Notes: generated by a model from the letters alone, not told the origin. Positions 15,656 to 54,349 are shown, counted from the stretch's first letter. The stretch: 64,000 nucleotides of DNA from Patescibacteria group bacterium (GCA_034716235.1 JAYEHH010000032.1:370-64369), one strand, 5' to 3'. Translations and numbers: made by a program.

Positions 15656-16192
15656 TTAATGAAAGGTCTGTGCTCTTTCGTTTTCATCCGGCTTCTTTTT
15701 CCCTCCCTTCATCCCATGCCGGATTACTCTTACGATGTTATAACTCCAATACTTCCTCCTGAAGTAGTCTATTAAGCTATCTACTTCTTTGTTAAAGCAA
15801 ATAGCTAGAAATAAAACACCACTAGGTTGCTTGACCATCTTGGTTGCATCCGAGAGTGATATTCTATCGTCAATCTCGTTTACTATGAGAACTGTTCCCT
15901 CATATGTTTTAACCAAATAAAACATATTGAGAGTTTCTCCAATTCTTAGAGGGTTAGCTGAGCTGATATTCTCCCATGAATTTTCCTTATATTTTGTATA
16001 AAGATGTCTTGACAATCCGTTGAGCTCTTGGGTTGGGCAAATAGCCATAAAGGAGCCAAGTCCATACTGCTCAATTATGCTAACTATTTCTGCCAGTCGC
16101 TTTTCCATAACGGATTCCTCTACCACAATATTTCCGACTCCTATATCCAGTAGGGATGCTAGATACACTATATTAAACTTTTCTTTATTCAT
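15656..16192 (-). CDS. Hypothetical protein with two copies of a ~55-aa domain; paralogous to the upstream gene
   Basis: Internal repeat (..ICPTQELNGLSRHLYTKYKE.. / ..ICFNKEVDSLIDYFRRKYWSYNIVRVIRHG) matching the upstream protein (..VCSDNEITGLLRYFRERYQEENIVRIIIRE). Confidence 0.6.
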   Translation of the reverse strand: MNKEKFNIVYLASLLDIGVGNIVVEESVMEKRLAEIVSIIEQYGLGSFMAICPTQELNGLSRHLYTKYKENSWENISSANPLRIGETLNMFYLVKTYEGTVLIVNEIDDRISLSDATKMVKQPSGVLFLAICFNKEVDSLIDYFRRKYWSYNIVRVIRHGMKGGKKKPDENERAQTFH

Positions 16193-16538
16193 TTTCCTCT
16201 CCTCCTTTTTTAAGGGTTGTCTGACGTTGTTTTTTATCGTCCTTATCTTTCAGGCTCTTTATTTTGCTGTAAGATTTTTCTCTTTCTCCTTCTTCTCTTA
16301 TTATAATTCTGACAATATTTTCTTCTTGGTACCTCTCCCTAAAATAGCGAAGCAGCCCTGTAATTTCATTATCAGAACAAACAACCAATAGGAAATTAGA
16401 TTCCGATTTTTCAATCTCTTCAGAAATTTTTCCTACTTGTTCTTCTGGATTGATTGATTCTGCAACCAAAATCCCCTCTTTTGCATCTTCTCCCCCTAGC
16501 CGAGTTAAAAAAATCTTGCTAAATCTTTTTTTGCCCAT
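16185..16538 (-). CDS. Hypothetical small protein, single copy of the same domain, acidic/lysine-rich tail
   Basis: 8-nt overlap with the downstream paralog; shared LVVCSDNE..GLLRYFRERY..NIVRII motif. Confidence 0.6.
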   Translation of the reverse strand: MGKKRFSKIFLTRLGGEDAKEGILVAESINPEEQVGKISEEIEKSESNFLLVVCSDNEITGLLRYFRERYQEENIVRIIIREEGEREKSYSKIKSLKDKDDKKQRQTTLKKGGEENE

Positions 16539-20726: not shown

Positions 20727-20949
20727 TCAGATATATTAAAAATTAGGTGTTTAATTATTATCTTTCTCCTAGGATTACTTTGATTTCTTTTTTCCATATT
20801 GATAAATATTAAAAACTAAAAAGCAAATTCTTTTTGCAAATTTATTGTTATTATACTACCGTTTACCTTTTTGTAAAATTTTAATTTTATTTTATTTTTA
20901 AAATCTGCTATGCTTTGAAAGGAAAAATTTAATTATTAAACTAAAATTT

Positions 20950-21219
20950 ATGGCTTATTCATTGGAAAATCCTAAGAGATTTAATAGGATACCCGATCAT
21001 ATTTTTGAGAGAATAGCATATAACGCTTTGAATATGATAGAGAAAGACAAAAAAGCCGAAGCCTTGAAAGTGTTAGAAGATGAAAAATTTAGAAAAAAAG
21101 CTACTCAATTCTGGGAAGGAAAATTTATTGGAGATGATTCAACAAAAGCCGAGATTGAATTGGCAAAGGGATTAAAAATAAGATTGGAAGAAGAGCTTAA
21201 AGACAATGATTTAACTTAA
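20950..21219 (+). CDS. Hypothetical small charged protein
   Basis: 89-aa ORF in an otherwise non-coding gap; no recognised motif. Confidence 0.35.
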   Translation: MAYSLENPKRFNRIPDHIFERIAYNALNMIEKDKKAEALKVLEDEKFRKKATQFWEGKFIGDDSTKAEIELAKGLKIRLEEELKDNDLT

Positions 21220-21243
21220 TAAAGATTATAGATATTTTTTAAA

Positions 21244-21290
21244 CTAAAAAAGCCCGCCTCACTATTTAAAAAAATAGATAAAGCGGACTT
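21244..21290. terminator. Possible bidirectional terminator: imperfect hairpin flanked by A6/T6 runs, between the small ORF and the 23S 3' end
   Basis: aaaaaaGCCCGCCTCACTATTT aaaaaa ATAGATAAAGCGGAC tttttt. The stem is imperfect. Confidence 0.3.
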
Positions 21291-21632
21291 TTTTCAATTC
21301 TCTAAAGTAATATAATCTCCGTAAATTAGCTAAAAACAAATTAATTGCGGTAAACGATCTATTAGTAATGCTTGGCTGAACGTGTTACCACGCTTACACC
21401 TACATCCTATCAACCTCGTCATCTTCGAGGAGATCTAAGCCTAATCTTGGGTTGGGCTTCGCGCTTATATGCTTTCAGCGCTTATCCACATCCGACTATA
21501 GCTACCCAGCAATGCCCTTGGTAGGGACAACTGGTACACCAGAGGTCGATTCATCCCGGTCCTCTCGTACTAGGGATGAGATCCCTCAAGCTTTCTCGCG
21601 CCTATGGAAGATAGGGACCAACCTGTTTTACA

Positions 21633-21664
<32 letters not shown>

Positions 21665-21679
21665 TTGGCGAACAGCCAA

Positions 21680-21726
<47 letters not shown>

Positions 21727-22364
21727 AGTAGCGAACAGCCTCGTCTATATGAGCTATCGGAGGCTACCACTCTGTTATCCCCGGGGTAACTTTTATCTGC
21801 TGAGCTTCCGCGATCCTACGATCCACGGTCGGATCACTAAATCCCGCTTTCGCGACTGCGCGACCTATAAGTCTTGCAGTAAAGCCGGCATCTGCTTTTG
21901 CGCTATCAGTCCGATTTCCATCCGGACCTAGCCGACCTTTGTGAACGACTCCGTTACAATTTGGGAGTCGAGCGCCCCACTCAAACTACCCACCAGACAC
22001 TGTTCCCGAGCTGGTGTTTAGTTACCTCTGGTAAATTTCACTGTTTCACATTTAATCAAGAAATCCCCAAAACATAGCTAAACATCAGCTCAAGGTTAGA
22101 ACTACACGATTCACAGGGTGGTATTTCACTGATGACTCCATCTATCCCAAAGGATAAATCTCAAAGTCTCCCACCTATACTGAGCAATAAATTGTATAGA
22201 TCAATGTCAAGCTGTAGTAAAGCTCCACGGGGTCTTTCCGTCTTTCCATAGGCAAACGGCATCTTTACCGCTACTGCAATTTCACCGGGTCCTTCGTTGA
22301 GACAGTCTCCAAGTCGTTACCCCATTCGTGCAGGTCTGAACTTACCAGACAAGGAAATTCGCTC

Positions 22365-22722
22365 TGTTTTGTTAATCTTTATGTCACCATAAAGCACGGA
22401 CTATATCTTTCCGCTAAATTTAAGTCAAAAAATTTAGGCGGATTCAGCGTTTAGTCTCTGAGGATTCTAAAAATCTTTTTTAGTCTTTCCTGCTGATTAT
22501 CTGGCACCTCGGATCTTTTCCGAGAATTACTGATAACTTTTTTACTTGGCATAGCTTTATAAAAATCTATGGAATAACTATACCATAGTAGTCTCAGATT
22601 TTCCAGATTTTCCAGCATATAGCTGAATGTTTTAGGACATCTTAATAATTTAAGATAGGCAGCGTTAATAATATAATTGTTCCAGTCCTTTTGGAATCTA
22701 AATATTAAATTCCAAAACCTTA
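22365..22722 (-). other. ~357-nt insertion in 23S between AAGGU and AGCGAAAUUCC (E. coli ~1917 region): candidate ORF-less group I intron or intervening sequence
   Basis: Core flanks align with E. coli 23S; the inserted sequence has no rRNA homology and contains internal repeats (cagattttccagattttccag) and hairpins. Confidence 0.5.
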
Positions 22723-22914
22723 GAACAATTATAGTTATTGCTGACGTTCACCGGGGCTTCAGAGATTGGCGTTAACCGCTCTCGTTAACCTTCCGGCACT
22801 GGTCAGGGGTCAGCCCCTATACATCCCCTTACGGGTTAGCAGGGACCTATGTTTTTGATAAACAGTCGCCCGGAGTCTTTAGCTGTGGCCGACGAATGTA
22901 CTGAATGGTGAATC

Positions 22915-23213
22915 CGAACTAGATAATTATCTGGTTCGGATTGTATGTGGGTTATTAATATTTTATTATGCTTTCTAACAAAGCGTTGCTAGGGTGCATA
23001 AAACGGTGACAATCGTCCAAAGTAGAAAGCCTATTAAAGGCATCTCTGCTAGGCCAATTGCCGTGCTCATCATCTTCTTTGTTCTTCCTTTCATATTGAT
23101 CCTCCTCCTCTAATTTCAATTTAAAAAACATAATTTACCCACACTTACCTTTTTTATTTTTTCTCCTTTCCTAAATCCATTTAGATTTCTTGGATTTAGA
23201 TTTTAAAGTTCAA
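22915..23213 (-). other. ~300-nt expansion of 23S helix 63 closed by a 15-bp inverted repeat (gtactgaatggtgaa / ttcaccattcagtac)
   Basis: Flanks align to E. coli 23S ~1700-1750; perfect inverted repeat at 22900-22915 and 23213-23229. Confidence 0.6.
22975..23094 (-). CDS. 39-aa hydrophobic peptide ORF (MKGRTKKMMSTAIGLAEMPLIGFLLWTIVTVLCTLATLC) inside the 23S helix-63 insertion, in rRNA sense, with GGAGGAGGA SD
   Basis: Manual translation of the minus strand: GGAGGAGGAtcaatATG...TAG. Basic N-terminus plus a single transmembrane-like segment, as in type I toxins. Confidence 0.3.
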   Translation of the reverse strand: MKGRTKKMMSTAIGLAEMPLIGFLLWTIVTVLCTLATLC

Positions 23214-24453
23214 TTCACCATTCAGTACACTGTCGGCAGGCCTTATCCCGAAGTTACGGCCGCTATTTTGCCGAGTTCCTTAACGAAGGTTCTCCCGTTC
23301 ACCTTGGGCTACTCGCCCTACCCACCTGTGTTGGTTTAAGTACGGATTAAACCTAAATATTTTCACAAAGCTTTTCCAGGAAGTCTATTCGCTCGAATCT
23401 GTTCCACTTGCGTTTCACATTTTTCCGCACCTTTTAAAAAGATGAAGAAACGTCAAACCATTAAGACGCTCAAGTTAGCTGACTTCGCACTTTGCTACAA
23501 CTTAGATTTAAGTCAAGGAATATTAACCTTGTGCCCATCGACTACGCTTTTCAGCCTCGCCTTAGGACCGACTAACCCTGGGCTGATTATCATCGCCCAG
23601 GAAACCTCAGGTTTTTGGTGGAAAGGAATCTAACCTTTCTTGCGGTTACTCATACCAACATTCTCTCTTCCATTAGCTCCACTAAAACTCACATTTTAGC
23701 TTCACAGCGCATGGAATGTTCTCCTACCCCGCCATACTCTAAAAAGAATATGACAGCCATAGTTTCGGTACTATGTTTGAGCCCCATTATATCTTCGGCG
23801 CGGAACGACTAGACTAGTGAGCTGTTACGCACTCTTTAAAGGAATGGCTGCTTCTAAGCCAACCTTCTAGCTGTTTAAGAAGTTCTACATCCTTTTCCAC
23901 TTAACATAGATTAGGGACCTTAACTAATGGTCTGGGCTGTTTCCCTTTCGTAAATGAAGCTTAGCCCCCACTTACTGACTCGTTAGACTTGTATATTGGA
24001 ATTCGGAGTTTGGTTGAGTGCCCTAGACAAAAGTCATGGATACTCATTCAGTGCTCTACCTCCAATACCAACTATCTAACGGCTATACCTAGATATATTT
24101 CGGAGAAAACCAGCTATCGCCGAGTTCGATTAGCATTTCACCTCTAACCACAGCTCATCCCAGCGTGTTGAACGGCGCTTGGGTGCGGACCTCCACCGCT
24201 TTTTAAGGCGGCTTCATCCTGGCCATGGCTAGCTCACTCGGCTTCGGGTCTGACCCTAACGACAGGGGGCGCCACTTAAGACTCGCTTTCGCTGCGGCTC
24301 TTCCGCCTAGACGGATTAACCAAGCCGTTAAAATCAACTCGTTGGTTCGTTCTGCAAAAAGCACGCGGTCACCGGCTCAAAAAAAACTTGAGCGGGCTCC
24401 CACTCGTTGTAAGCACACGGTTTCAGAAACTATTTCACTTCCCTTTCGGGATA

Positions 24454-24495
<42 letters not shown>

Positions 24496-25401
24496 AAAGT
24501 GTATTTAGTCTTACCGGGTTAGTACCGGCAAATTCACCTGGAATTTCTCTAGTTCCAGGCTACTCAAGATAAAATAACTCAGAGTGATTAATTGTTTTCG
24601 CCTACAGGACTTTTACCTTCTAAGGTAAGCCTTTCCAGGCATTTTTGGCTAACAACTAATGCTTTTTACTCTGCCAATACTAAAAGTTGTAAAAGCACAA
24701 TAAAATTATACTTTTACAATTTCAGTTCGGACGCTATTGAACTTATTACCCTCAGTAAAAACTGAGTTTGGACTTTTCCCCGTTCGCTCGCCGCTACTTA
24801 GGGAATAACTATTGTTGTTTTTTCCTTCGGCTACTAAGATGTTTCAATTCGCCGAGTATGCTTTTTACTCCTATGTATTCAGAGTAAAATTCTATTCAAA
24901 AATGAATAGAGGGTTTCCCCATTCGGAAATTCCCGGATCAAAGCTTGCTTGACAGCTCCCCGAGACTTTTCGCAGCCTGCTACGCCCTTCATCGCCACTT
25001 TGTACCAAGGCATCCACCATATGCTCTTATAACCACAATTTATTAGTGTTTTTAGCTAATTCACAAAGATTATTTGTAAATTAATTGCAATCACTTAAAT
25101 ACCATTTTGCCTAATAATTGTTTTTAACCACAATCTCCAAACAACTATTATTAAAATAAATTGTTAAAGTCCATTATGTGGCCTAAAAGGTAGTTTTTAA
25201 AAATAAAAACCGCTTTTCAAGCCGCTAATTCTTTAAAATAAATTAGACCCAAAAACTAGCCAAGGAACAGCTCTTAATAAATTCTCAATAAAATAATACT
25301 ATAAAAATTATTATAGCAATAAATAAGTTAGTGTCAACTGAATGTAAACCAACCTCTAATCTCTAAATTAATAAATAGACAATTCAGAGCTTATAATTTC
25401 T

Positions 25402-33451: not shown

Positions 33452-35128
33452 TTATTTTTTGCGCTTAAAACCAATGACCAATTTATCTTTCAAGAATATC
33501 TCTAAAAATTCTAAAATATTTCTAGTAACAAAAACTGCCGTAAACATACTCAAAGTAATTCCAATTCCTAAAGTAATTGCAAAGCCCTTAACCATTCCGG
33601 TACCTAAGCTTGTTAAAACTACACAAGTAATTAGGGTTGATATGTTTCCATCTCTAATGGATGGCCACGCCCTCTTAAAGCCGTTGCTAATCGCTAGCTT
33701 AACGGAACGTCCTTCTTTTAATTCTTCCTTAATGCGTCCAAAAATAAGGATGTTAGCATCCACCGCCATTCCTACCGAAAGAATAAAACCGGCAATGCCC
33801 GAAAGAGTTAAGGTAATTCCTAAAATTTTAAAAACGGCCACGATAGCAACGGCATAAAAACTTAAGGAAATAACCGCTACCAATCCGCAGATTAAATAAA
33901 AAGTTAGCATAAAACCAGAAACTAAGCTTATTCCAAGTAAGCCAGCCGTTAAACTTTTCTTCAAGGAAGATGCTCCTAAGGAAGCTCCTACTTTTTCTTG
34001 GCTAATCAATTCAATTGGAACCGGTAAAGCTCCAGCATTTAATCTTTTAGCCAATTCCTTGGCCTCGGTGATATCTCCAGAACCAGTGATAACCGCTCTT
34101 CCGTCGGCAATAACGGTTTGGACAACTGGAACGGTAATAGGTGCTCCGTCTAGAAAAATAGCTAATCGTTTACCAACATTTCTTTCGGTAATCTCCCTAA
34201 ACATCTTCTTTCCTTCATCATCAAACTGAAGAGAAACTTGAGGCTCTTGAGTATTTTGATTAAAAATAACCGCTGCTTGCTTTAAATTTTTTCCAGTAAG
34301 CGGAGTTAATTTAAATGGCTGAGTAGCAACTTCTTTTTTTGTTTCGTCAACAGTTTTAAATAAAATGTGGCTTATTTTAACTTCTTGCTGGCCATCAATT
34401 TCTCTCTCGTCAGTTTTCTTAAGAAGATGATAGCCAAATTGAGTTTGAACTAGATTTGGCCAAACAGAATCTTTAGTAAAGTCTTTGTTGAAAGCCACTT
34501 CTTCAAATTCGGGTACCATAGCTTCTTTTCCGAAGAATCCTAAATCTCCACCTTGGTCTTTGTTGGCAACATCGGCAGAATTTTCCTGAGCAAGTTTAGC
34601 AAAATCTTCACCGTCTAAAGCTTTCCCCAAAATAGCTTCTGCCTGAGTTTTGCTTTGCTGATTGGTTTCTTTAGCTATTTCTTGTTCTTCTGGAGTTAAT
34701 TGTAGAGCTTCTTCATCATTTTCTTCCCGAAAATCAAGCACAGGGGTTTCGCCTATCATGGCGATAGCTGCCTCAACATTAGTAACCCCTGCCAAATCTA
34801 CAATGATACGATATTCCTCACCAGATTTATTGGTTAAAATTTGAGGTTCAGAAACTCCATAAGCGTTAACCCTTCTTTCAATAACGTCTCGAATACCACT
34901 CAAGCTTTCTGTCAAACTATCCGAAGGAATACTTGACATATCCGCCCGATAAACCAGGTGAGCTCCTCCTTGCAAGTCAAGTCCCAACTTTATTTTTAAT
35001 TCCCTTAAGGTTTGACCGACAGGCTTTCCCAACAAATTAAAATCTGGCATTTTGGGTGAAGCCACGGCTCCAGCAACTAAAGTTAATAGAATTATAGCTA
35101 GAATGTTAAGATAAATTTTTTTATTCAT
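33452..35128 (-). CDS. secD: Protein translocase subunit SecD
   Basis: 558 aa; large periplasmic domain plus C-terminal RND-like transmembrane bundle (..AGFILSVGMAVDANILIFGRIKEE..). Confidence 0.85.
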   Translation of the reverse strand: MNKKIYLNILAIILLTLVAGAVASPKMPDFNLLGKPVGQTLRELKIKLGLDLQGGAHLVYRADMSSIPSDSLTESLSGIRDVIERRVNAYGVSEPQILTNKSGEEYRIIVDLAGVTNVEAAIAMIGETPVLDFREENDEEALQLTPEEQEIAKETNQQSKTQAEAILGKALDGEDFAKLAQENSADVANKDQGGDLGFFGKEAMVPEFEEVAFNKDFTKDSVWPNLVQTQFGYHLLKKTDEREIDGQQEVKISHILFKTVDETKKEVATQPFKLTPLTGKNLKQAAVIFNQNTQEPQVSLQFDDEGKKMFREITERNVGKRLAIFLDGAPITVPVVQTVIADGRAVITGSGDITEAKELAKRLNAGALPVPIELISQEKVGASLGASSLKKSLTAGLLGISLVSGFMLTFYLICGLVAVISLSFYAVAIVAVFKILGITLTLSGIAGFILSVGMAVDANILIFGRIKEELKEGRSVKLAISNGFKRAWPSIRDGNISTLITCVVLTSLGTGMVKGFAITLGIGITLSMFTAVFVTRNILEFLEIFLKDKLVIGFKRKK

Positions 35129-46525: not shown

Positions 46526-48343
46526 ATGCCAAATTATTTCGTCAATCAAAGAAATATTAGTGCGTTACTTCAAAACATTAAGGACGAAGATATTGTAATC
46601 CCAGAAATTCAGAGACCTTTTGTTTGGGAGAGTAAAAAAGTTCGTAATCTTATGGACTCATTGTATCAGGAATTTCCAATAGGTTATATTATTACATGGA
46701 AAAATCCAAATATAAGACTAAAAAATGGAAGAATGAGCGAGGGAAAACAAGTTATAATAGATGGACAACAAAGAATTACCGCTTTAATGGCTGCGATCTT
46801 GGGACGAGAAATTATAGACAAAGAGTATCAAAAAAAGAGGATTCGGATTTCCTTTAATCCATTGAAAGAAAAGTTTGAAACATTAACTCCTGTTATTGAA
46901 AAAAATAGTGAATGGATAAGCGATATTTCAGAATTTTTTAAAACTAGAAATAATATTTTTAATTTTACTGCTAATTTTTGTAAAAAAAATAATTTTACCG
47001 AAAAACAAAAAATCAAGACTCAGCAAAGTCTAACAAAATTACTAAACATGGAGGATAAGTTTATTGGAATTATTGAGCTTGATGCAAATTTAGATATTGA
47101 TGATGTAACGGAAATATTTGTTAGAATTAATGATGCTGGGACTCCCCTTTCACAAGCAGATTTTGCAATGAGTAAAATTGCCTCATACGAACCAACATCA
47201 GACCATTTGTTTGGAGTGAATTTAAGAAAGTCTATTGATTATTTTGCTCATCTATCTCAAACACCACATTTTCTTGAAGATATTGGAAGAAACGATAAAG
47301 AGTTTAGCCGAACAGAATATTTGCTAAAAATGAAATGGGCCGGGAAGGAATTGGATAATATATATAATCCAAACTATAAGGATATTTTAAGAGTAAGTTT
47401 CATTAAGGAATTTAATAGAGGGAAAATTAGCGATCTTGTGAAGCTTTTATCTGGACAAAATTTTAAAACAAGAAATTATGATCAAAAAATACAAGAGAAA
47501 TCATTCTTGGCTTTAAAAAATGGAGTCCTTGACTTTATAAATGAAAATCATTTTAAGAAATTCCTTATTATTTTACAATCAGCTGGAATTATTGATTCAA
47601 AACTTATTAATTCACAGAGCGTTCTAAATTTTGCCTATATTGTCTATTTAAAACTTAGAAAAGATGGAATGGCAAATAATTTAATTGGGAAATATACAAA
47701 AAAATGGCTTGTTCTTTCAATTTTGACTGAAAGATATTCAGCCTCACCAGAATCTACGATGGATAAGGATATTAAAGATATTAATAAATATGGAATTAAA
47801 AAAGTTATTGCAAAGATTGAAGAGGCGGACATGTCATCAACTTATTGGAATATTGGACTTGTACAAAATTTAAACAGGGCGATAATTTCAAGCCCATTTT
47901 TAAGCCTCTTTTTTATAGCACAGATATGCTCTAAGGATAAAGCTTTATTCTCCGAATCGGTTTTAATCGATCAACTCGTTAGCATAAAAGGAGACGTCCA
48001 TCATATTTTCCCCAAAAATTATCTTCAAAAAGCAGGGTTTGGAATAAGTAAATATAATCAAATTGCAAATTTTGTTTATTTACAACAAGAAGTAAATATA
48101 ACAATAGGAGATAAACCACCAGGACAATATTTTAGCCGAGCATTGAATCAATGTGATAATAAAACTTTGGATAGTGGAAGTATTGGAGAAATTACAGACA
48201 AGAAAAAATTGATAAAAAATTTAGAAATAAATTCTATCCCAACTGATATTTTTGAAATGGATATTACTAATTATGATGAATTTTTAGAAAAAAGACGGAA
48301 ATTAATGGCAAAGAAAATTGAAAAGTTTTATAAAAGTTTATAG
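46526..48343 (+). CDS. GmrSD-like type IV (modification-dependent) restriction endonuclease: N-terminal DUF262 (ParB-like NTPase) plus C-terminal DUF1524 (His-Me/HNH-like nuclease)
   Basis: PEIQRPFVW...IIDGQQRITAL (DGQQR hallmark of DUF262); C-terminal DVHHIFPKNY...N...N (DUF1524 signature); 605 aa. Confidence 0.75.
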   Translation: MPNYFVNQRNISALLQNIKDEDIVIPEIQRPFVWESKKVRNLMDSLYQEFPIGYIITWKNPNIRLKNGRMSEGKQVIIDGQQRITALMAAILGREIIDKEYQKKRIRISFNPLKEKFETLTPVIEKNSEWISDISEFFKTRNNIFNFTANFCKKNNFTEKQKIKTQQSLTKLLNMEDKFIGIIELDANLDIDDVTEIFVRINDAGTPLSQADFAMSKIASYEPTSDHLFGVNLRKSIDYFAHLSQTPHFLEDIGRNDKEFSRTEYLLKMKWAGKELDNIYNPNYKDILRVSFIKEFNRGKISDLVKLLSGQNFKTRNYDQKIQEKSFLALKNGVLDFINENHFKKFLIILQSAGIIDSKLINSQSVLNFAYIVYLKLRKDGMANNLIGKYTKKWLVLSILTERYSASPESTMDKDIKDINKYGIKKVIAKIEEADMSSTYWNIGLVQNLNRAIISSPFLSLFFIAQICSKDKALFSESVLIDQLVSIKGDVHHIFPKNYLQKAGFGISKYNQIANFVYLQQEVNITIGDKPPGQYFSRALNQCDNKTLDSGSIGEITDKKKLIKNLEINSIPTDIFEMDITNYDEFLEKRRKLMAKKIEKFYKSL

Positions 48344-48375
48344 TAATAATTTTCTAATCAGAGAGCAGAAAGCTC

Positions 48376-48777
48376 TTACTCCTTATCAGGCAATCTATCA
48401 TCTTTTTTTCTTTGATAATAAGTATTCTTATTTAAACATCTGTTTATAATATTTTCCATGTGCCAATAAGTGTAATTGCCATATCTAAAATAAATCTGTT
48501 TTGTTTTGTAAAAATAATCCTCGTATCCTGACTGGTCAATGTAATTAGCAAGCTCTAAGTATAATTTGTTATCAACTTTTTCTTGGACAATATATTCATG
48601 GGGCCATGTTTTAGCATAAGTTTTTGCAGGCGTCCAATTAGAATTTTTAATAAATAATTTTAAATTATTGGGGAGTAGTACTCTATCAAACATCGCCTTT
48701 ATTTTTTTACTATGAAGAAATATTAAAACCTTTTTGATTGTAGCTATAGTATTGTTGATTACTTTAGTTTCATCCAT
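48376..48777 (-). CDS. Hypothetical aromatic-rich small protein, convergent with the GmrSD-like gene
   Basis: 133-aa ORF, no recognised motif. Confidence 0.35.
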   Translation of the reverse strand: MDETKVINNTIATIKKVLIFLHSKKIKAMFDRVLLPNNLKLFIKNSNWTPAKTYAKTWPHEYIVQEKVDNKLYLELANYIDQSGYEDYFYKTKQIYFRYGNYTYWHMENIINRCLNKNTYYQRKKDDRLPDKE

Positions 48778-48930
48778 GCTGAATCTAAAGTGGATTCCAT
48801 AAGTTGCATATTCTTTTAATCAAAAATACATTATTTATTTCAATAAGTATAGTAAGTTATAATTTAAAATAGCTGAACAGAATTCTTAATTTATAATCTA
48901 GAATTTGTAATCTAAAATCTCTCAAGACTT

Positions 48931-48970
48931 GATTAAATGGGTAGAAAGTGGCTTAATGGGGAGGAGAATT
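48931..48970. repeat. Repeat copy R7 (gattaaatgggtagaaagtggcttaatggggagg module)
   Basis: Near-identical to 55962-55997 and similar to 46447-46476. Confidence 0.7.
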
Positions 48971-49095
48971 GCATGGTTAATTGGTTATCAATGAAAATGC
49001 TATAAAGTTTTTATTAAGATTATAATTAAGAGAATAATTCAGGTAGGGTTTTTTGCAAAAATTAATGTGCTTTTTAATTATTTTATATAAATTCA

Positions 49096-52014
49096 ATGAG
49101 AGTTAATATCAAGGAAATCAGGAGAATAATTAAATCTGATGTTATTAAGCCTAGAATTGAAGAATATTTACAGAAAAGAAAAAGTGGAGACGAGCAGCAA
49201 TGGAACGAGGAATATAAATGGGATCCAAAAATATTGCCTGCAACACATAAGGAATTTATCAAGGAAAGAGACATTCTTAAAAAAATTGAAATTCTTCAAA
49301 AAAATAATCCAAACGAAGGATCCTTTGTGAGTTATATGGACTTGGACGATCTCAATAAATTTGCTAAGGAAAAAACAAAGCAAGCCACAAAGTTGATGGA
49401 AAACTTATTGAATGGAAAAAAGAATATTGCTAAACGCATTGATTATTTTAGGGATGAGACGAAAAAAGTGGATGAAAAAATTAAATTAGGAACACCCTTA
49501 TTTGGTTACATTATGGCGGTATTCAATTCCAGTAAATATCCAACTTATAAAAATTCAACCTTTATGGCTCTCAAAAAGCTCATTGGAAAAAGACAAGAAT
49601 GGAGTTCTATGAGTGTTGGCGAGAAATATCAAACATTTACTGACCTGTGCCATGAAATGGGCAAATTGCTGAAGCCAGAACTTGAAACTGTAAATATCAG
49701 AGGTATTGAGGTCAAGCCAGGAAGGACTGCTCTGGATGGTCAAGACTTTTTCTATATTCTTGAAGATCGTTATAATAGAGAGAGATATTTCCCCGAACTT
49801 GTTAAATTTCTTGAACAAGCCAAGGCAAGCAATCTTACAACAAAGCAATACCGAAAGGATTATATGAATTGTAAAGTGAGGATAAGTTTTGGAAAAGTAA
49901 GCTCTGCACAAACACCCTGGATTAGTTTTTTATCCGGTGACAATAAATTACAGAAGGGAATTTATCCAGTCTTTCTTTTTTATAAAAGTATAAATAAATT
50001 ATTTCTAGCATATGGTATAAGTGAAATAAGTGAACCCGAACAAATTTGGAACATTGTTGGAAAAGAAACAATTGAAGATTATTTTATTGAAAATTTCAAC
50101 TCGGAGCCAGAGAGATATGGCAGTTCTTATGTTTATAAAGTATACGATGTGAAAAACATTGATAATTTAAATCAAGAACAAATGGAAAATGACTTGAAAA
50201 ACATAATTAATGAATATAAAAAACAACTTGAAGAAACTCCAAAAATTCAATACTGGACAATTTCTCCGGGGGAAGATGCAAAGCACTGGGAGGAGTTCTA
50301 TCAAAAAGGGATCATTGGAGTCGGCTGGGATAAAACAAAAGATCTCTTACAATATAAAAATAAAAAAGAAATTCAAAAGGTTGCGAAAAACTTATTTGGA
50401 TTAAAAACTAATGCCAGCAATACTGCCCAAGCTTGTTTGGATTTTTCTAGAACAATGAGAATTGGGGATATTTTAATTGTCAAAAAGGGAATTCATGAAT
50501 TGGTCGGCTATGGAAAGGTAACTTCAGATTATATTTATGATGCAAGGAGGAAGACATATAAACACATACGAAATGTGATGTGGATTAAAAAGGGAAATTG
50601 GAAGATAGATAAAGAGATTATTCATCCTGCATTAAAAACTTTAACTAACATAACTCCGTATGAAGGTTATGCCCAAGAATTATTGGGCATAATGGACGAA
50701 AGTAATATTGATGGAAAAAATTACTGGTGGATTAATGCAAATCCAAAAATTTGGAATTTAACAGAGGCGGAAGTCGGTTCCAAACAAATATATACAAGCC
50801 ATAATGAGGCCAAGAATCCCAGAAGAATTTATAGTTATTTTAAAGAGGTTAAGCCGGGCGACATTATGTTTGGATATATAACAAGTCCTGACAAACAAAT
50901 TACTTCAATATGCAAAATAACCAAAGGGTTATATGAGAACAAAGAGGGGGAAGTGATTGAATTTGAAAAAACTGAGACTTTACAAAATCCAATTTTGTGG
51001 AATGAATTGAAAAATGAAGAAAGTTTGAAAAATTGCGAACCAATTAAGAACAATCAAGGAAGTTTGTTTAAAATAAGCAAAGAAGAATATGAAACCATTA
51101 GATATTTGATTGATGAGAAAAATATTTTCACGAAAGAAAAAATTGAAAAATATATAAAAAAGGATGCTCTAGACAAATTATTTATTTCAGAAAATGAATT
51201 TGATAATATAGCCCAAAATATTGAAAGAAACAAAAATATCATTCTGCAAGGCCCTCCCGGAGTTGGCAAAACTTTTCTTGCAAAAAGGTTGGCTTATTAT
51301 TTGATTGGATACAAAGACGTAAACAAGGTACAATCTATCCAATTTCATCAATCATATTCATATGAAGATTTCATGCAAGGTTACAGGCCCAATGAAAAAG
51401 GAAAATTTGATCTTGTTAATGGAATATTTTTCAGATTTTGTCAGAAAGCTAAAAATGATCCAAACAATAAGTATTTCTTCTTGATAGATGAAATAAATAG
51501 AGGAAATCTGAGCAAAATTTTTGGTGAATTAATGATGCTTATTGAAAAAGATAAACGGGGTAAAGATTTTGCTATACCTTTAACATATTCCCAAGATGAC
51601 AGAGAAACATTTTATGTGCCAGAAAATGTTCATTTGATTGGGACTATGAACACAGCTGATAAATCACTTGCGATGGTAGACTATGCTTTGCGAAGAAGAT
51701 TTAATTTTATTTTTCTGAAACCAAAATTTAATAACAGCTTTAGTTCATTCCTAGAAAATATGGGAGTTAAAAAGATTATTATTAAAGCGATAGTTGAAAA
51801 AATAAGCAAACTAAATGAGATGATAATTAATGATGATAATAATCTTGGAAAAGGATATCAAATTGGTCATAGTTTTTTCTGTCCTCAGAGAAAAAGTAAA
51901 TATGACGAAGAATGGTTTAAGAATATTGTCAAATACGAAATTGAACCATTGCTCGAGGAGTATTGGTTTGATAGTGAGAAAAAATTTAATGAAGCGAAGA
52001 ATTTATTAAACTGA
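49096..52014 (+). CDS. mcrB: McrB-like GTP-specific AAA+ motor with a long N-terminal extension: DUF3578-like (MrcB-N) module plus two EVE/PUA-like modules
   Basis: AAA+/GTPase motifs GPPGVGKTF, FFLIDEINRGN, GTMNTADKS (NTAD signature of McrB), RRRF. N-terminal VRISFGKVSSAQTPWISFLSGDNKLQKGIYPVFLFY fits the DUF3578 pattern. An EVE-like segment runs YWWINANPKIW...GDIMFGYITSPDKQITSICKI...; an earlier similar module runs YWTISPGEDAKHWEEF...GDILIVKKG. Confidence 0.8.
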   Translation: MRVNIKEIRRIIKSDVIKPRIEEYLQKRKSGDEQQWNEEYKWDPKILPATHKEFIKERDILKKIEILQKNNPNEGSFVSYMDLDDLNKFAKEKTKQATKLMENLLNGKKNIAKRIDYFRDETKKVDEKIKLGTPLFGYIMAVFNSSKYPTYKNSTFMALKKLIGKRQEWSSMSVGEKYQTFTDLCHEMGKLLKPELETVNIRGIEVKPGRTALDGQDFFYILEDRYNRERYFPELVKFLEQAKASNLTTKQYRKDYMNCKVRISFGKVSSAQTPWISFLSGDNKLQKGIYPVFLFYKSINKLFLAYGISEISEPEQIWNIVGKETIEDYFIENFNSEPERYGSSYVYKVYDVKNIDNLNQEQMENDLKNIINEYKKQLEETPKIQYWTISPGEDAKHWEEFYQKGIIGVGWDKTKDLLQYKNKKEIQKVAKNLFGLKTNASNTAQACLDFSRTMRIGDILIVKKGIHELVGYGKVTSDYIYDARRKTYKHIRNVMWIKKGNWKIDKEIIHPALKTLTNITPYEGYAQELLGIMDESNIDGKNYWWINANPKIWNLTEAEVGSKQIYTSHNEAKNPRRIYSYFKEVKPGDIMFGYITSPDKQITSICKITKGLYENKEGEVIEFEKTETLQNPILWNELKNEESLKNCEPIKNNQGSLFKISKEEYETIRYLIDEKNIFTKEKIEKYIKKDALDKLFISENEFDNIAQNIERNKNIILQGPPGVGKTFLAKRLAYYLIGYKDVNKVQSIQFHQSYSYEDFMQGYRPNEKGKFDLVNGIFFRFCQKAKNDPNNKYFFLIDEINRGNLSKIFGELMMLIEKDKRGKDFAIPLTYSQDDRETFYVPENVHLIGTMNTADKSLAMVDYALRRRFNFIFLKPKFNNSFSSFLENMGVKKIIIKAIVEKISKLNEMIINDDNNLGKGYQIGHSFFCPQRKSKYDEEWFKNIVKYEIEPLLEEYWFDSEKKFNEAKNLLN

Positions 52015-52019
52015 TTTTT

Positions 52020-53057
52020 ATGGAGATACCTATAATAAATATATATTACCTACTTTGTTATGCTTGGGATAAACTTGAAGAAAAAGATGTTGTTAACGTA
52101 AAAGAAGAAGATCACACTAAGTTACTTGATCTTTTTGCAAAGATATTAATTAACGGAATGAATCATCTAATCAGGAAAGGATTGGACAGAAATTACATTG
52201 ATATCAAAGAAGATTCAAAGAGAATTAAGGGAAAGATTAATTTCAATGAAACACTGAAAAGGAACTTGTTGGTACGATGTGAAATTAGTTGCGAATTCGA
52301 CGATTTTAGTTACAACATTCTTCACAACAGAATTATTAAAACAGTGATTGGAGGATTAGTTAGAAATGATGAGGTGGATCAGGAGCTGAGGGACGAATTG
52401 AATAAAATCTATCGATTATTGAAAGAGATTGATGAGATAAGGCTTTCCTCAAAAATATTTAATGCTGTAAAATTAAACAGAAATAATTACTTTTATGATT
52501 TTCTGATCAAGGTATGTAGGCTGATATATGAAAATTATTTAATCACGGAAGAAACGGGCAAGGGGAAATTTAGAGATTTTATAAGAGACGAAGTAAAAAT
52601 GAGAATGCTCTTCGAAGATTTTGTTAGGAATTTTTATAGAAAAGAACAAAACGAATTTTCTGTAACAAGGGAATTGATTGCATGGAATGTTAAGGCTGAG
52701 AATGATGAAGATATGAGTTATATGCCGAGAATGGAAACCGATATATCGCTAAAATCAAAAAGTAAAAAAATAATAGTTGATACAAAATATTATAAAGAGG
52801 CCATTAAGGGTCAATATAAGAATAAAGAAAAGTTAATATCCAATAATTTATATCAAATGTTTGCCTACATAAATAATATAGAAAACAAAGGAGGTCTAAA
52901 TAAAAAATGTACTGGAATATTACTTTACCCAACAGTTAAAAAAGATTTGGATTTAAAATATAAAATACCAAATCATAACTTACAAATTAAAACAATAAAT
53001 CTAAATCAAGAATGGAAAAAAATTCATAAAGACTTATTAAGTGTAATTATGACTTGA
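52020..53057 (+). CDS. mcrC: McrC-like PD-(D/E)xK nuclease partner of McrB
   Basis: Starts 5 nt after the mcrB stop; McrC signature D-x-K in IIVDTKYYK with upstream acidic residues and QMFAY. Confidence 0.7.
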   Translation: MEIPIINIYYLLCYAWDKLEEKDVVNVKEEDHTKLLDLFAKILINGMNHLIRKGLDRNYIDIKEDSKRIKGKINFNETLKRNLLVRCEISCEFDDFSYNILHNRIIKTVIGGLVRNDEVDQELRDELNKIYRLLKEIDEIRLSSKIFNAVKLNRNNYFYDFLIKVCRLIYENYLITEETGKGKFRDFIRDEVKMRMLFEDFVRNFYRKEQNEFSVTRELIAWNVKAENDEDMSYMPRMETDISLKSKSKKIIVDTKYYKEAIKGQYKNKEKLISNNLYQMFAYINNIENKGGLNKKCTGILLYPTVKKDLDLKYKIPNHNLQIKTINLNQEWKKIHKDLLSVIMT

Positions 53058-53131
53058 AAATCCCTATGTTTATAAATTTTAAAAACAATTTAGAATAGAA
53101 GATAATCATCTATTTATATTTATATAACCCA

Positions 53132-54349
53132 ATGCAACAATTTTCTCATTCAAAATTACAAACCTATGAAAGATGTCCCCTGCAATATAAGCTCCAATAC
53201 CTCACCAATCTAAAGCCGGAGCAGGAAGAGACAATAGAAGCCTTTGTGGGTAGCCGGGTCCATGAGACTCTGGAACTTCTTTATCGTGATCTACTGCGAA
53301 CAAAACTAAATTCTTTAGCTGATCTTTTAAAGTTCTATGATAAAATTTGGAGAGTAAACTGGAGCAATGACATAGTTATCAATAATAAAGAATTTAAAAA
53401 GAAACATTACTTTGATCTTGGAAAAAAATGTATTAAAAATTATTATGAAAAATATAGCCCTTTTGATCAGGATCAAACAATTGGAATTGAGAAGAGGATT
53501 AATTTACAATGGGGAGACATTGGAATAGTGGGATACATTGACCGTTTAGCTAGAGACAGCCAGGGTATTTATTCTATCCATGATTATAAAACGGGTGCCA
53601 TCATGGAACAGAAGTACGCAGATCAAGATCGTCAGCTAGCCTTGTATTCAATTGCCGTTAAGGAAAACTTTAGAGAGGCCAAAGAGGTAAGGTTAATTTG
53701 GCATTTTGTAGCTTATGGCGAAGATGTTATCTCGAAACGGACAAATAAGGAATTGGCTAAGCTAAAAAATGAAATGCTGTCCCTTATTGAAGAAATTAAT
53801 CTTGCAGAAAAAGAAGATAATTTTCCAGCCAAAGAAACTAAATGTGAATGGTGCGGATATTGGCAGTATTGCCCAAAGAAAAAGCATTTATTCAAAACAG
53901 AAAAACTTCCAAAAAATAAATACCTACAAGATAGTGGAGTAAAACTAGCAAAAAAGTATATTAATTTATCACAACAAAGAACTGTCATAAACAAACGAGC
54001 TAAAACTAAGGGGGAAATAATTAAGCAAGAAATGCTAAAGATTCAAGAAGCTATCCTAAAATATACCCAGAAACATAAAATAGATGTCTTGGCGGGAGAA
54101 AAAATGCTTGTAGCTATTAATAAGAGTAAGAACTATACCTTCCCTACAAAAACTACTGACATTGAAAAATACACTGAATTGGAAAATTTATTGAAAAAAA
54201 GTAAGTACTGGAACGGTGTATCTTCCGTCAATGCCCAAAAAGTTAGTCAATTATTGGAAGATGATGGGATTGACAGTAGATTAAAGCAGAAAATTATTGC
54301 CCTTGCTCCACTTGAAGAATCTACTAACTTATCAATCAGAAAAAAGTAA
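53132..54349 (+). CDS. Cas4/RecB-like PD-(D/E)xK nuclease with 4-Cys cluster and ~150-aa C-terminal extension
   Basis: N-terminal SKLQTYERCPLQYKLQY, GYIDRL, IHDYKTG (D..D-x-K), QLALYSIA (QxxxY), CEWCGYWQYC. Confidence 0.7.
   Translation: MQQFSHSKLQTYERCPLQYKLQYLTNLKPEQEETIEAFVGSRVHETLELLYRDLLRTKLNSLADLLKFYDKIWRVNWSNDIVINNKEFKKKHYFDLGKKCIKNYYEKYSPFDQDQTIGIEKRINLQWGDIGIVGYIDRLARDSQGIYSIHDYKTGAIMEQKYADQDRQLALYSIAVKENFREAKEVRLIWHFVAYGEDVISKRTNKELAKLKNEMLSLIEEINLAEKEDNFPAKETKCEWCGYWQYCPKKKHLFKTEKLPKNKYLQDSGVKLAKKYINLSQQRTVINKRAKTKGEIIKQEMLKIQEAILKYTQKHKIDVLAGEKMLVAINKSKNYTFPTKTTDIEKYTELENLLKKSKYWNGVSSVNAQKVSQLLEDDGIDSRLKQKIIALAPLEESTNLSIRKK

Follow-up and report, generated by a model that had tools for sequence, protein, structure and literature searches.

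The 64,000-nucleotide stretch of Patescibacteria group bacterium DNA analysed here (GCA_034716235.1 JAYEHH010000032.1:370-64369), which we refer to as the window, contains on its minus strand a complete 23S rRNA gene in which helix 63 carries 338 nt of extra sequence, closed at its base by a long perfect duplex and containing, in the sense of the rRNA, a short open reading frame (ORF) preceded by a Shine–Dalgarno (SD)-like motif. Our favoured reading, to which we give a rough probability of 0.55, is that this is an insert of the intervening sequence (IVS) type at the tip of helix 63, probably excised by RNase III, with a cargo that is exchanged between strains and an ORF that is carried as a passenger. 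An initial annotation of the region had described a helix-63 insertion flanked by an inverted repeat, and had likened the encoded peptide to the type I toxins; the structural half of that interpretation is sound and the toxin half is unsupported.

Position and architecture of the helix-63 insert

The 23S rRNA gene (21341-25040, minus strand) is recognised by the Rfam LSU_rRNA_bacteria model with a score of 2318.8 bits and is 3700 nt long, against 2925 positions in the model. Its helix 63 occupies 22888-23237 in all, on the same strand, and begins with a base stem in which GCCGAC (23237-23232) pairs with GUCGGC (22893-22888). The boundaries of the extra sequence between these arms, for which the initial annotation had called for an rRNA structural alignment, are set at 22894-23231 (minus strand) by alignments together with the pairing of the flanking repeat, giving the measured length of 338 nt. 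In the Rfam sub-alignment 325 inserted bases replace the 8-nt helix-63 loop of the model, and in a pairwise alignment with Escherichia coli rrlH the extra sequence falls between positions 1712 and 1757, so that the proposed insertion is borne out by both. An extended stem-loop therefore stands in place of the small terminal loop of a 23S helix, which is one of the defining properties of an IVS.

The second such property, complementary borders forming a stable stem, is equally evident. The 15-mer GTACTGAATGGTGAA occurs exactly twice in the window, at 22898-22912 on the plus strand and at 23214-23228 on the minus strand, where a chance expectation of only ~0.07 matches applies even when two mismatches are allowed; the perfect 15-bp inverted repeat of the initial annotation is thus present as two exact copies, and forms part of a longer helix. 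In the RNA, 18 bp (23231-23214 with 22895-22912, both arms on the minus strand), which we call the clamp, are followed by a one-base bulge (C22894) and then by the 6-bp base stem GCCGAC/GUCGGC. The whole element folds at -105.2 kcal/mol (z = -8.3 against shuffles).

The insert interior between the clamp arms (22913-23213, minus strand) is 301 nt long and, its 3' hairpin aside, has no detectable homology to the cargo of the sister alleles described below. Just inside the clamp, both the minimum free energy and the centroid structures contain a 5' internal hairpin, AAAUCUAAAUCC...GGAUUUAGG (23166-23208, minus strand), while an 8-bp long-range stem, GUGUGGGU/ACCCACAU, is predicted to enclose the ORF region (5' half at 23137-23144; 3' half, ACCCACAU, at 22945-22952; minus strand). 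Beside the 3' clamp arm lies the 3' hairpin UCCGAACCAGAU-AAUU-AUCUAGUUCGGA (22913-22940, minus strand), which has a counterpart at the same position in all three of the alleles known to us. Searches of this cargo and of the sister cargo against Rfam gave chance-level matches only, and no group I intron core was found in the helix-63 insert at E <= 5.

Neither strand of the insert contains a promoter- or terminator-like site, the promoter scan being for the sigma-70-type consensus only. Without such signals of its own, the insert would be transcribed within the pre-23S rRNA, where the ~24-bp duplex of the clamp and base stem would be a natural substrate of RNase III. As this substrate is near-ideal, the insert is probably cut out without religation, which would leave a functional fragmented 23S rRNA, as with the classical intervening sequences of helices 9, 25 and 45.

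Sister alleles: a conserved frame with exchangeable cargo

A metagenome scan with the 38-nt 5' flank of the insert returned three Joint Genome Institute (JGI) contigs (L082, L083 and L084), the 23S sequences of which are 95-98% identical to that of the window outside helix 63 and the interior of a group I intron; the conserved helix-63 flank is GGGATAAGGCCTGCCGACAGTGT. Eight further ENA/JGI contigs were found to carry the ORF of the L082 type. Three helix-63 alleles can be distinguished, of 338 nt (window), 268/269 nt (L082, L083, L085-L092) and 80 nt (L084), so that the insert varies sporadically among close strains with ~97% identical 23S rRNA, as classical intervening sequences do.

In the shortest allele, the 80 nt between the base-stem arms consist of the clamp, a short internal loop and a 10-bp hairpin, with no ORF. 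The interior of the L082/L083 allele is different again: AGAGGA is followed after 7 nt by an ATG and 50 codons (MENKREIGFFETPIGRFTTFLRIKLNDFFTSHEPPYPPPPTISEEEKDRG), and then by a 12-bp hairpin. This hydrophilic, acidic 50-amino-acid (aa) product is present in the protein collection as P0003, having been called as a gene by the JGI and ENA gene callers, and has no relatives in that collection beyond identical copies. Among the ten L082-type copies all those of 269 nt are identical, and selection on the ORF therefore cannot be measured. The allele of the window has no second copy in other accessible assemblies, and no viral contig matched a degenerate flank-plus-clamp pattern.

Against this variation in cargo, the clamp is strictly maintained. 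Four of its pairs differ between the window and the L082/L084 alleles, three through compensatory double changes and one through a change from A-U to G-U, and pairing is kept at 18 of the 18 positions. The earlier suggestion that the stem is of the type bordering intervening sequences excised by RNase III is supported. Between L082 and L084 the 3' hairpin shows significant similarity, and at the matching position in the window a CCGAA...UUCGG stem is recognisable, for which sequence similarity alone is not significant. Between the cargos themselves no significant DNA homology was detected, the best local alignment being 22 nt of purine-rich leader (p 0.13-0.31). The more distant relatives L096 and L098 (74-86% identity) have an ordinary short helix 63. 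Conservation in related 23S genes, which the initial annotation had put forward as a check, thus holds for the clamp and the 3' hairpin and fails for the 39-codon ORF of the window, which is absent from the sister alleles.

The shared clamp and hairpin, the unrelated cargos and the short helix 63 of distant relatives together point to a conserved RNA frame with exchangeable cargo, an element that, judged from the available sequences, is confined to one narrow lineage. The cargo would be exchanged or replaced among strains through recombination at a dispensable surface helix. Near-identical strains here provide a natural series of empty frame, cargo A and cargo B, which suggests that recombination is tolerated at the helix-63 tip, with an RNA frame under selection and a cargo that is free to vary.

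Two other accounts of the frame have to be considered against this series. The first takes the insert for a miniature transposable element resembling the miniature inverted-repeat transposable elements (MITEs), with the 15-bp repeat as its terminal inverted repeats. Its ends do form a perfect 15-16-bp inverted repeat, and there is precedent in Nostoc and Deinococcus, whose 23S genes can contain transposon-type insertions bearing inverted repeats (PMC2672173). No target-site duplication lies beside the repeat, however, neither the 64-kb window nor ~1.5 Mb of retrieved loci yielded a further copy of the insert, and blastn gave no phage or plasmid match to the cargo. The cargo-free 80-nt allele preserves the repeat through compensatory changes, so that the repeat acts as an rRNA helix and not as a pair of transposon ends. 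We regard a transposable origin of this kind as extremely improbable.

The second account starts from the eukaryotic expansion segment ES27L, which sits at helix 63 and illustrates that a long protruding helical extension is tolerated on the solvent side; mature ribosomes keep this segment, which is conserved within lineages. By analogy, the insert could be retained in the mature 50S subunit as a helix-63 expansion segment projecting from the solvent side, in which case the ORF would be irrelevant. The 80-nt L084 allele, a simple rod-like helix extension, is what such a segment might look like, and compensatory changes that keep the clamp and hairpin are expected if structure matters in the mature particle; helix 63 is moreover on the surface, dispensable, and lost in many lineages of the Candidate Phyla Radiation (CPR), according to the available parts of a survey of CPR ribosomes (PMC9297842). 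Yet a specific structural role is made less likely by the swapping, among near-identical strains, of 230-300 nt of non-homologous cargo, a perfect ~24-bp duplex would be hard to shield from RNase III, and the motif GGAGGAGGA exposed on the ribosome surface could titrate the anti-SD. Unlike ES27L, the helix-63 cargo changes from strain to strain and sits within a perfect duplex of the sort seen in excised elements, and we consider retention rather unlikely.

Reading frames within the cargo

The SD-like motif GGAGGAGGA (23100-23108, minus strand and hence rRNA sense) lies 5 nt upstream of the ATG (23094-23092) of a 39-codon ORF, MKGRTKKMMSTAIGLAEMPLIGFLLWTIVTVLCTLATLC (22975-23094, same strand), so that the SD followed by 39 codons in rRNA sense is present as the initial annotation had described it, an arrangement that is somewhat unlikely by chance. 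It is not the only frame of its length. A 58-codon ORF with no SD and a hydrophilic, orphan product overlaps it in another frame (22955-23131, minus strand), and the ORF scan also gave an antisense 39-aa ORF (22994-23113, plus strand); these overlapping and antisense frames suggest that stop codons are simply scarce here. In shuffles of the insert that preserved local composition, a sense ATG-initiated ORF of at least 39 codons appeared in 10-15% of cases.

The 39-aa peptide is an orphan. It had no homologue in a word-indexed search of 5.8 billion clusters, and an exhaustive phmmer search of 1.84 billion representatives gave no true homologue; the phmmer matches to P0001, a Sushi-repeat protein, and to P0002, where the match is spread over five weak stretches, were set aside as repeat artefacts. 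No ORF of either cargo belongs to a Pfam or NCBIfam family, even at E <= 5, in libraries that include the Hok, Ldr, TisB and Fst models. Membership of S23p/23S_rRNA_IVP was rejected on the same result, as was a degenerate remnant of a homing endonuclease, which likewise had no family match. The two cargo peptides and the 58-aa ORF product are unrelated to one another. Exact look-ups of the window's 39-aa, 58-aa, 49-aa flank-spanning, 63-aa and 115-aa spurious ORFs found none on record, and for a 61-aa spurious ORF the contigs retrieved were all either of the L082 type or uninformative. An analogy with integron cassettes, suggested by the pairing of an ORF with a hairpin, was dropped, no evidence for it having turned up and no dedicated test having been made.

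Codon usage sets the 39-codon ORF apart from the genes of the host. Its codon score of -0.11 matches the median for spurious ORFs and, among windows of real genes, falls at the 1.5th percentile, although 39 codons give this comparison limited power, and its GC content at third codon positions (GC3) is 0.47 compared with 0.28 in host genes. With codon usage unlike that of the host, sister alleles that do not have the ORF and no homologues, it does not have the marks of a protein-coding gene of this genome.

The proposal that the peptide has the architecture of a type I toxin stands as far as its composition is concerned and is unsupported as regards toxin identity. Like Hok, Ldr, TisB, Fst and Ibs, the peptide is small, with a basic N-terminus and one hydrophobic, transmembrane-like stretch (maximum 19-residue Kyte-Doolittle hydropathy 2.27, net charge +3), and it would be carried by a highly structured RNA with paired 5' and 3' ends. 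A transmembrane-like stretch is nevertheless common among the short ORFs of this AT-rich window, of which 12% reach a hydropathy of 2.0 and 25% reach 1.6. Unlike the known toxins the peptide matches no toxin family, has no homologues and is encoded inside an rRNA gene; the scan for sigma-70-type promoters revealed no site from which an antisense RNA might be transcribed, and the SD is predicted to be open and not sequestered. The ORF of the L082 type is hydrophilic and acidic, which leaves the type I toxin reading unsupported, and in the third allele an ORF is missing altogether. We therefore judge an rRNA-embedded type I toxin to be very improbable. As an ORF with neither relatives nor toxin-like support, the 39-codon frame is most likely an IVS passenger with no maintained function in the host, and could have arisen by chance or be left over from coding DNA that was captured.

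Passenger or translated cassette

Peptides have been proposed to be encoded within rRNA before, namely by the 'E-peptide' mini-gene of E. coli 23S rRNA and, in mitochondria, as humanin and MOTS-c, all with 5-24 codons in conserved core rRNA. The ORF of the window resembles these in being a short sense ORF with a ribosome-binding-like leader in an rRNA gene and differs from them in lying in a dispensable, exchangeable insert. The cargo ORFs might accordingly be genuine mini-genes, at least one of them functional and translated. The released RNA of ~300 nt, its ends protected by the clamp, would then be an abundant small mRNA on which an accessible SD drives translation, yielding a 39-aa membrane peptide from the allele of the window and a 50-aa acidic peptide from the sister allele, and helix 63 would serve as a landing pad where peptide cassettes can be exchanged and are expressed with the strength of the rRNA promoter.

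Several observations favour such mini-genes and weigh against a mere passenger. A sense ORF of at least 39 codons together with an SD pentamer arose in 0.5-1.2% of the shuffles of the window insert (~0.01), and in those of the unrelated L082-type cargo an SD accompanied an ORF of at least 30 codons with a probability of ~0.006 and one of at least 50 codons with ~0.0008. The SD of the window lies ~105 nt inside the clamp, so that it would survive excision, and its predicted mean unpaired probability is 0.85 compared with 0.39 over the whole element. The L082-type cargo shows no significant structure (z = -0.9), and its ORF, the one that the gene callers had accepted, has a host-like GC3 of 0.22 and an intermediate codon score. 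Recurrent SD-led sense ORFs, an open SD in the window and an unstructured L082 cargo with host-like GC3 fit real or recently real coding cassettes better than neutral filler. The IVS reading is further weakened in that the 64 kb of sequence covered here, a part of the genome, include no RNase III gene (rnc), and in that the canonical IVS sites are helices 9, 25 and 45 (PMC4990558), helix 63 not being among them; a canonical site is, however, a frequent property of these elements and not a strict requirement.

Use of SDs by the host bears on the question in both directions. Only two of the 42 genes of the window have an SD at the start of the longest ORF, or perhaps six to eight of the 42 when internal starts are included. 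That a few host genes do use strong SDs means that SD recognition probably exists; so sparing a use, in a group where the available parts of one survey report the anti-SD to be missing in about half of Parcubacteria (PMC9297842), counts against translation from such a signal. The two genes with the window's only clear strong SD leaders at the start of the longest ORF, AAGGAGGAGAGGAAAATG and AAGGAGAGGAAAATG, are adjacent, apparently paralogous and of unknown function, with no Pfam match (15656-16192 and 16185-16538, both minus strand). Nearly all other genes of the window have AT-rich leaders with no SD, and SD-like motifs occur at a few possible internal starts, such as those of the Hsp20 (58953) and RelA/SpoT (4171) genes.

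Further evidence stands against the mini-genes. Neither peptide has a homologue beyond identical copies, and there is no variation from which selection could be shown; the ORF of the window has the codon usage of a spurious ORF, in a region that also contains overlapping and antisense frames, and the L084 allele does without any ORF. Excised IVS RNA is labile in the bacteria that have been studied, and the IVS ORF of Coxiella is apparently not translated in vivo (PMC4990558). A membrane peptide made in step with rRNA synthesis would, in addition, probably be harmful. On balance we consider functional translation of at least one cargo ORF unlikely, if worth taking seriously, and the fuller proposal of a helix-63 hot-spot, in which a conserved frame carries exchangeable SD-led cassettes that are released by RNase III and translated, the cargo of the window giving a membrane peptide, quite unlikely. 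The one point worth pursuing further is that SD-led ORFs recur in cargos unrelated to each other. If these ORFs are translated, they would represent a new route by which bacteria with tiny genomes express strain-specific peptides, and would revive the old question of whether IVS ORFs are ever used; if they are not, the insert is one more rRNA IVS at an unusual helix, useful mainly for rRNA annotation and for explaining breaks in the assembly of CPR 23S genes.

Comparison with known rRNA insertions

Classical 23S intervening sequences, found in helices 25 and 45 of Salmonella, in Leptospira, Yersinia and Campylobacter, in helix 9 of alphaproteobacteria and, with an S23p gene, in helix 45 of Coxiella burnetii, convert the terminal loop of a surface helix into an extended stem-loop, are distributed sporadically between strains and are excised by RNase III (PMC4990558). 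The helix-63 insert shares with them the extended stem-loop at a surface helix, the complementary borders and the sporadic, strain-specific distribution, and, with some members, a sense ORF of doubtful translation (PMC4990558); the 23S gene of Coxiella also resembles that of the window in having a group I intron alongside the insert. In contrast to the classical elements, the insert of the window is at helix 63 and not at helix 9, 25 or 45, its ORFs and those of its sister alleles are 39-50-aa orphans and not S23p/23S_rRNA_IVP proteins, and its cargo differs wholly between ~97% identical rRNAs in which the frame is kept; RNase III excision, too, is here only predicted from the duplex. What is new is therefore the helix-63 site, the organisation into frame and cargo and the small orphan SD-led ORFs, and in other respects the element is like known intervening sequences.

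Insertions in rRNA genes are common in the CPR, and those other than group I and group II introns are largely uncharacterised. According to the available parts of two surveys, insertions of at least 100 nt occur in 77-82% of CPR 23S genes, about half of them being group I introns, many with LAGLIDADG genes, and the uncharacterised remainder has been suggested to include intervening sequences of the RNase III type (PMC9297842, PMC11270868). The helix-63 insert comes from the same host group and fits the uncharacterised class of non-intron insertions with no annotated ORF. As far as those parts of the surveys go, the frequent sites are named 23IS1-14, with IVS-like ones linked to known sites, and helix 63 is usually reduced or lost across the CPR (23Gap2), not expanded; small SD-led orphan ORFs are not described in them, ORFs having been annotated through Pfam domains (PMC9297842, PMC11270868). 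The view in the initial annotation that a translatable mini-gene in rRNA is not a standard feature of bacteria needs qualifying, given that the literature documents 23S intervening sequences with an ORF (S23p) as well as CPR rRNA insertions that contain one, the latter in the available parts of one survey (PMC4990558, PMC11270868).

The 23S rRNA gene and its host

The 23S gene lies directly downstream of atpD/atpC and is an unlinked one, situated between atpC and a Na+/Ca2+ exchanger gene (window 20727-25401), and no 16S, 5S or tRNA gene was found in the 64-kb window by Rfam, tRNA and downstream-5S searches. Between its 23S gene and the exchanger gene the relative L085 has four small genes on the minus strand (75-180 aa, no Pfam match) that are absent from the window. 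A search by synteny, through AtpD relatives in 80 genome loci, found no 23S gene near any of them.

The AtpD protein of the window shares 72-79% identity with proteins of Paceibacteria, Parcubacteria, Moranbacteria and other Patescibacteria metagenome-assembled genomes, which places the host, an uncultivated ultra-small bacterium, in the CPR, with no representative genome close to it. As far as can be judged from these data it is a Parcubacteria-like member of the Patescibacteria with a single 23S rRNA gene; its genomic GC content is ~0.34. The same organism is present in the Logan run SRR26901930, where contig L001 ends 221 nt into the 23S gene.

Compared with E. coli, the 23S gene has extra sequence in two other places, at 24645-24766 (minus strand; 70 + 26 nt, domain I) and at 22015-22081 (minus strand; 67 nt after E. 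coli position 2213). Both, in contrast to the cargo of helix 63, are conserved in relatives with 97% identity, so that the variability is confined to helix 63 and the interior of the intron.

That intron, a group I intron at the L1931 site of E. coli numbering (22364-22717, minus strand; Rfam Intron_gpI, 64.8 bits, match 22377-22717), is separate from the helix-63 insert and contains no ORF in the window. In relatives with ~97% identical 23S rRNA it carries the start of a LAGLIDADG homing-endonuclease ORF (MSADNQQERLKIIGWIVGYTDGEGCF...); the corresponding stretches are L088 2859-3011, L089 2839-2973 and L094 1806-2105, and the ORF was seen in L088 and L089. The interior of the intron differs among the window, L082 and L084, and assemblies tend to break at it. 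With its LAGLIDADG ORF in relatives, it is a standard member of the CPR rRNA insertions as these are presented in the available parts of the surveys (PMC9297842, PMC11270868).

Other features of the window

A region of low GC content (0.29-0.32) at 46526-54349 is a probable defence island, encoding a GmrSD-like protein, a 972-aa McrB-like protein with AAA_5, EVE and MrcB_N domains, McrC and a PD-(D/E)XK nuclease. At ~37950-38770 gene orientation and cumulative GC skew both switch, minus-strand genes lying to the left and plus-strand genes to the right; a replication origin at this strand switch, at ~38-39 kb, was considered for its origin-like pattern and rejected, DnaA-box matches not being enriched and none falling in the interval. 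Finally, the SecD homologue encoded at 33452-35128 (minus strand) contains an inserted rotamase domain of the PPIC type (parvulin) at residues 151-241, which is an unusual fusion.

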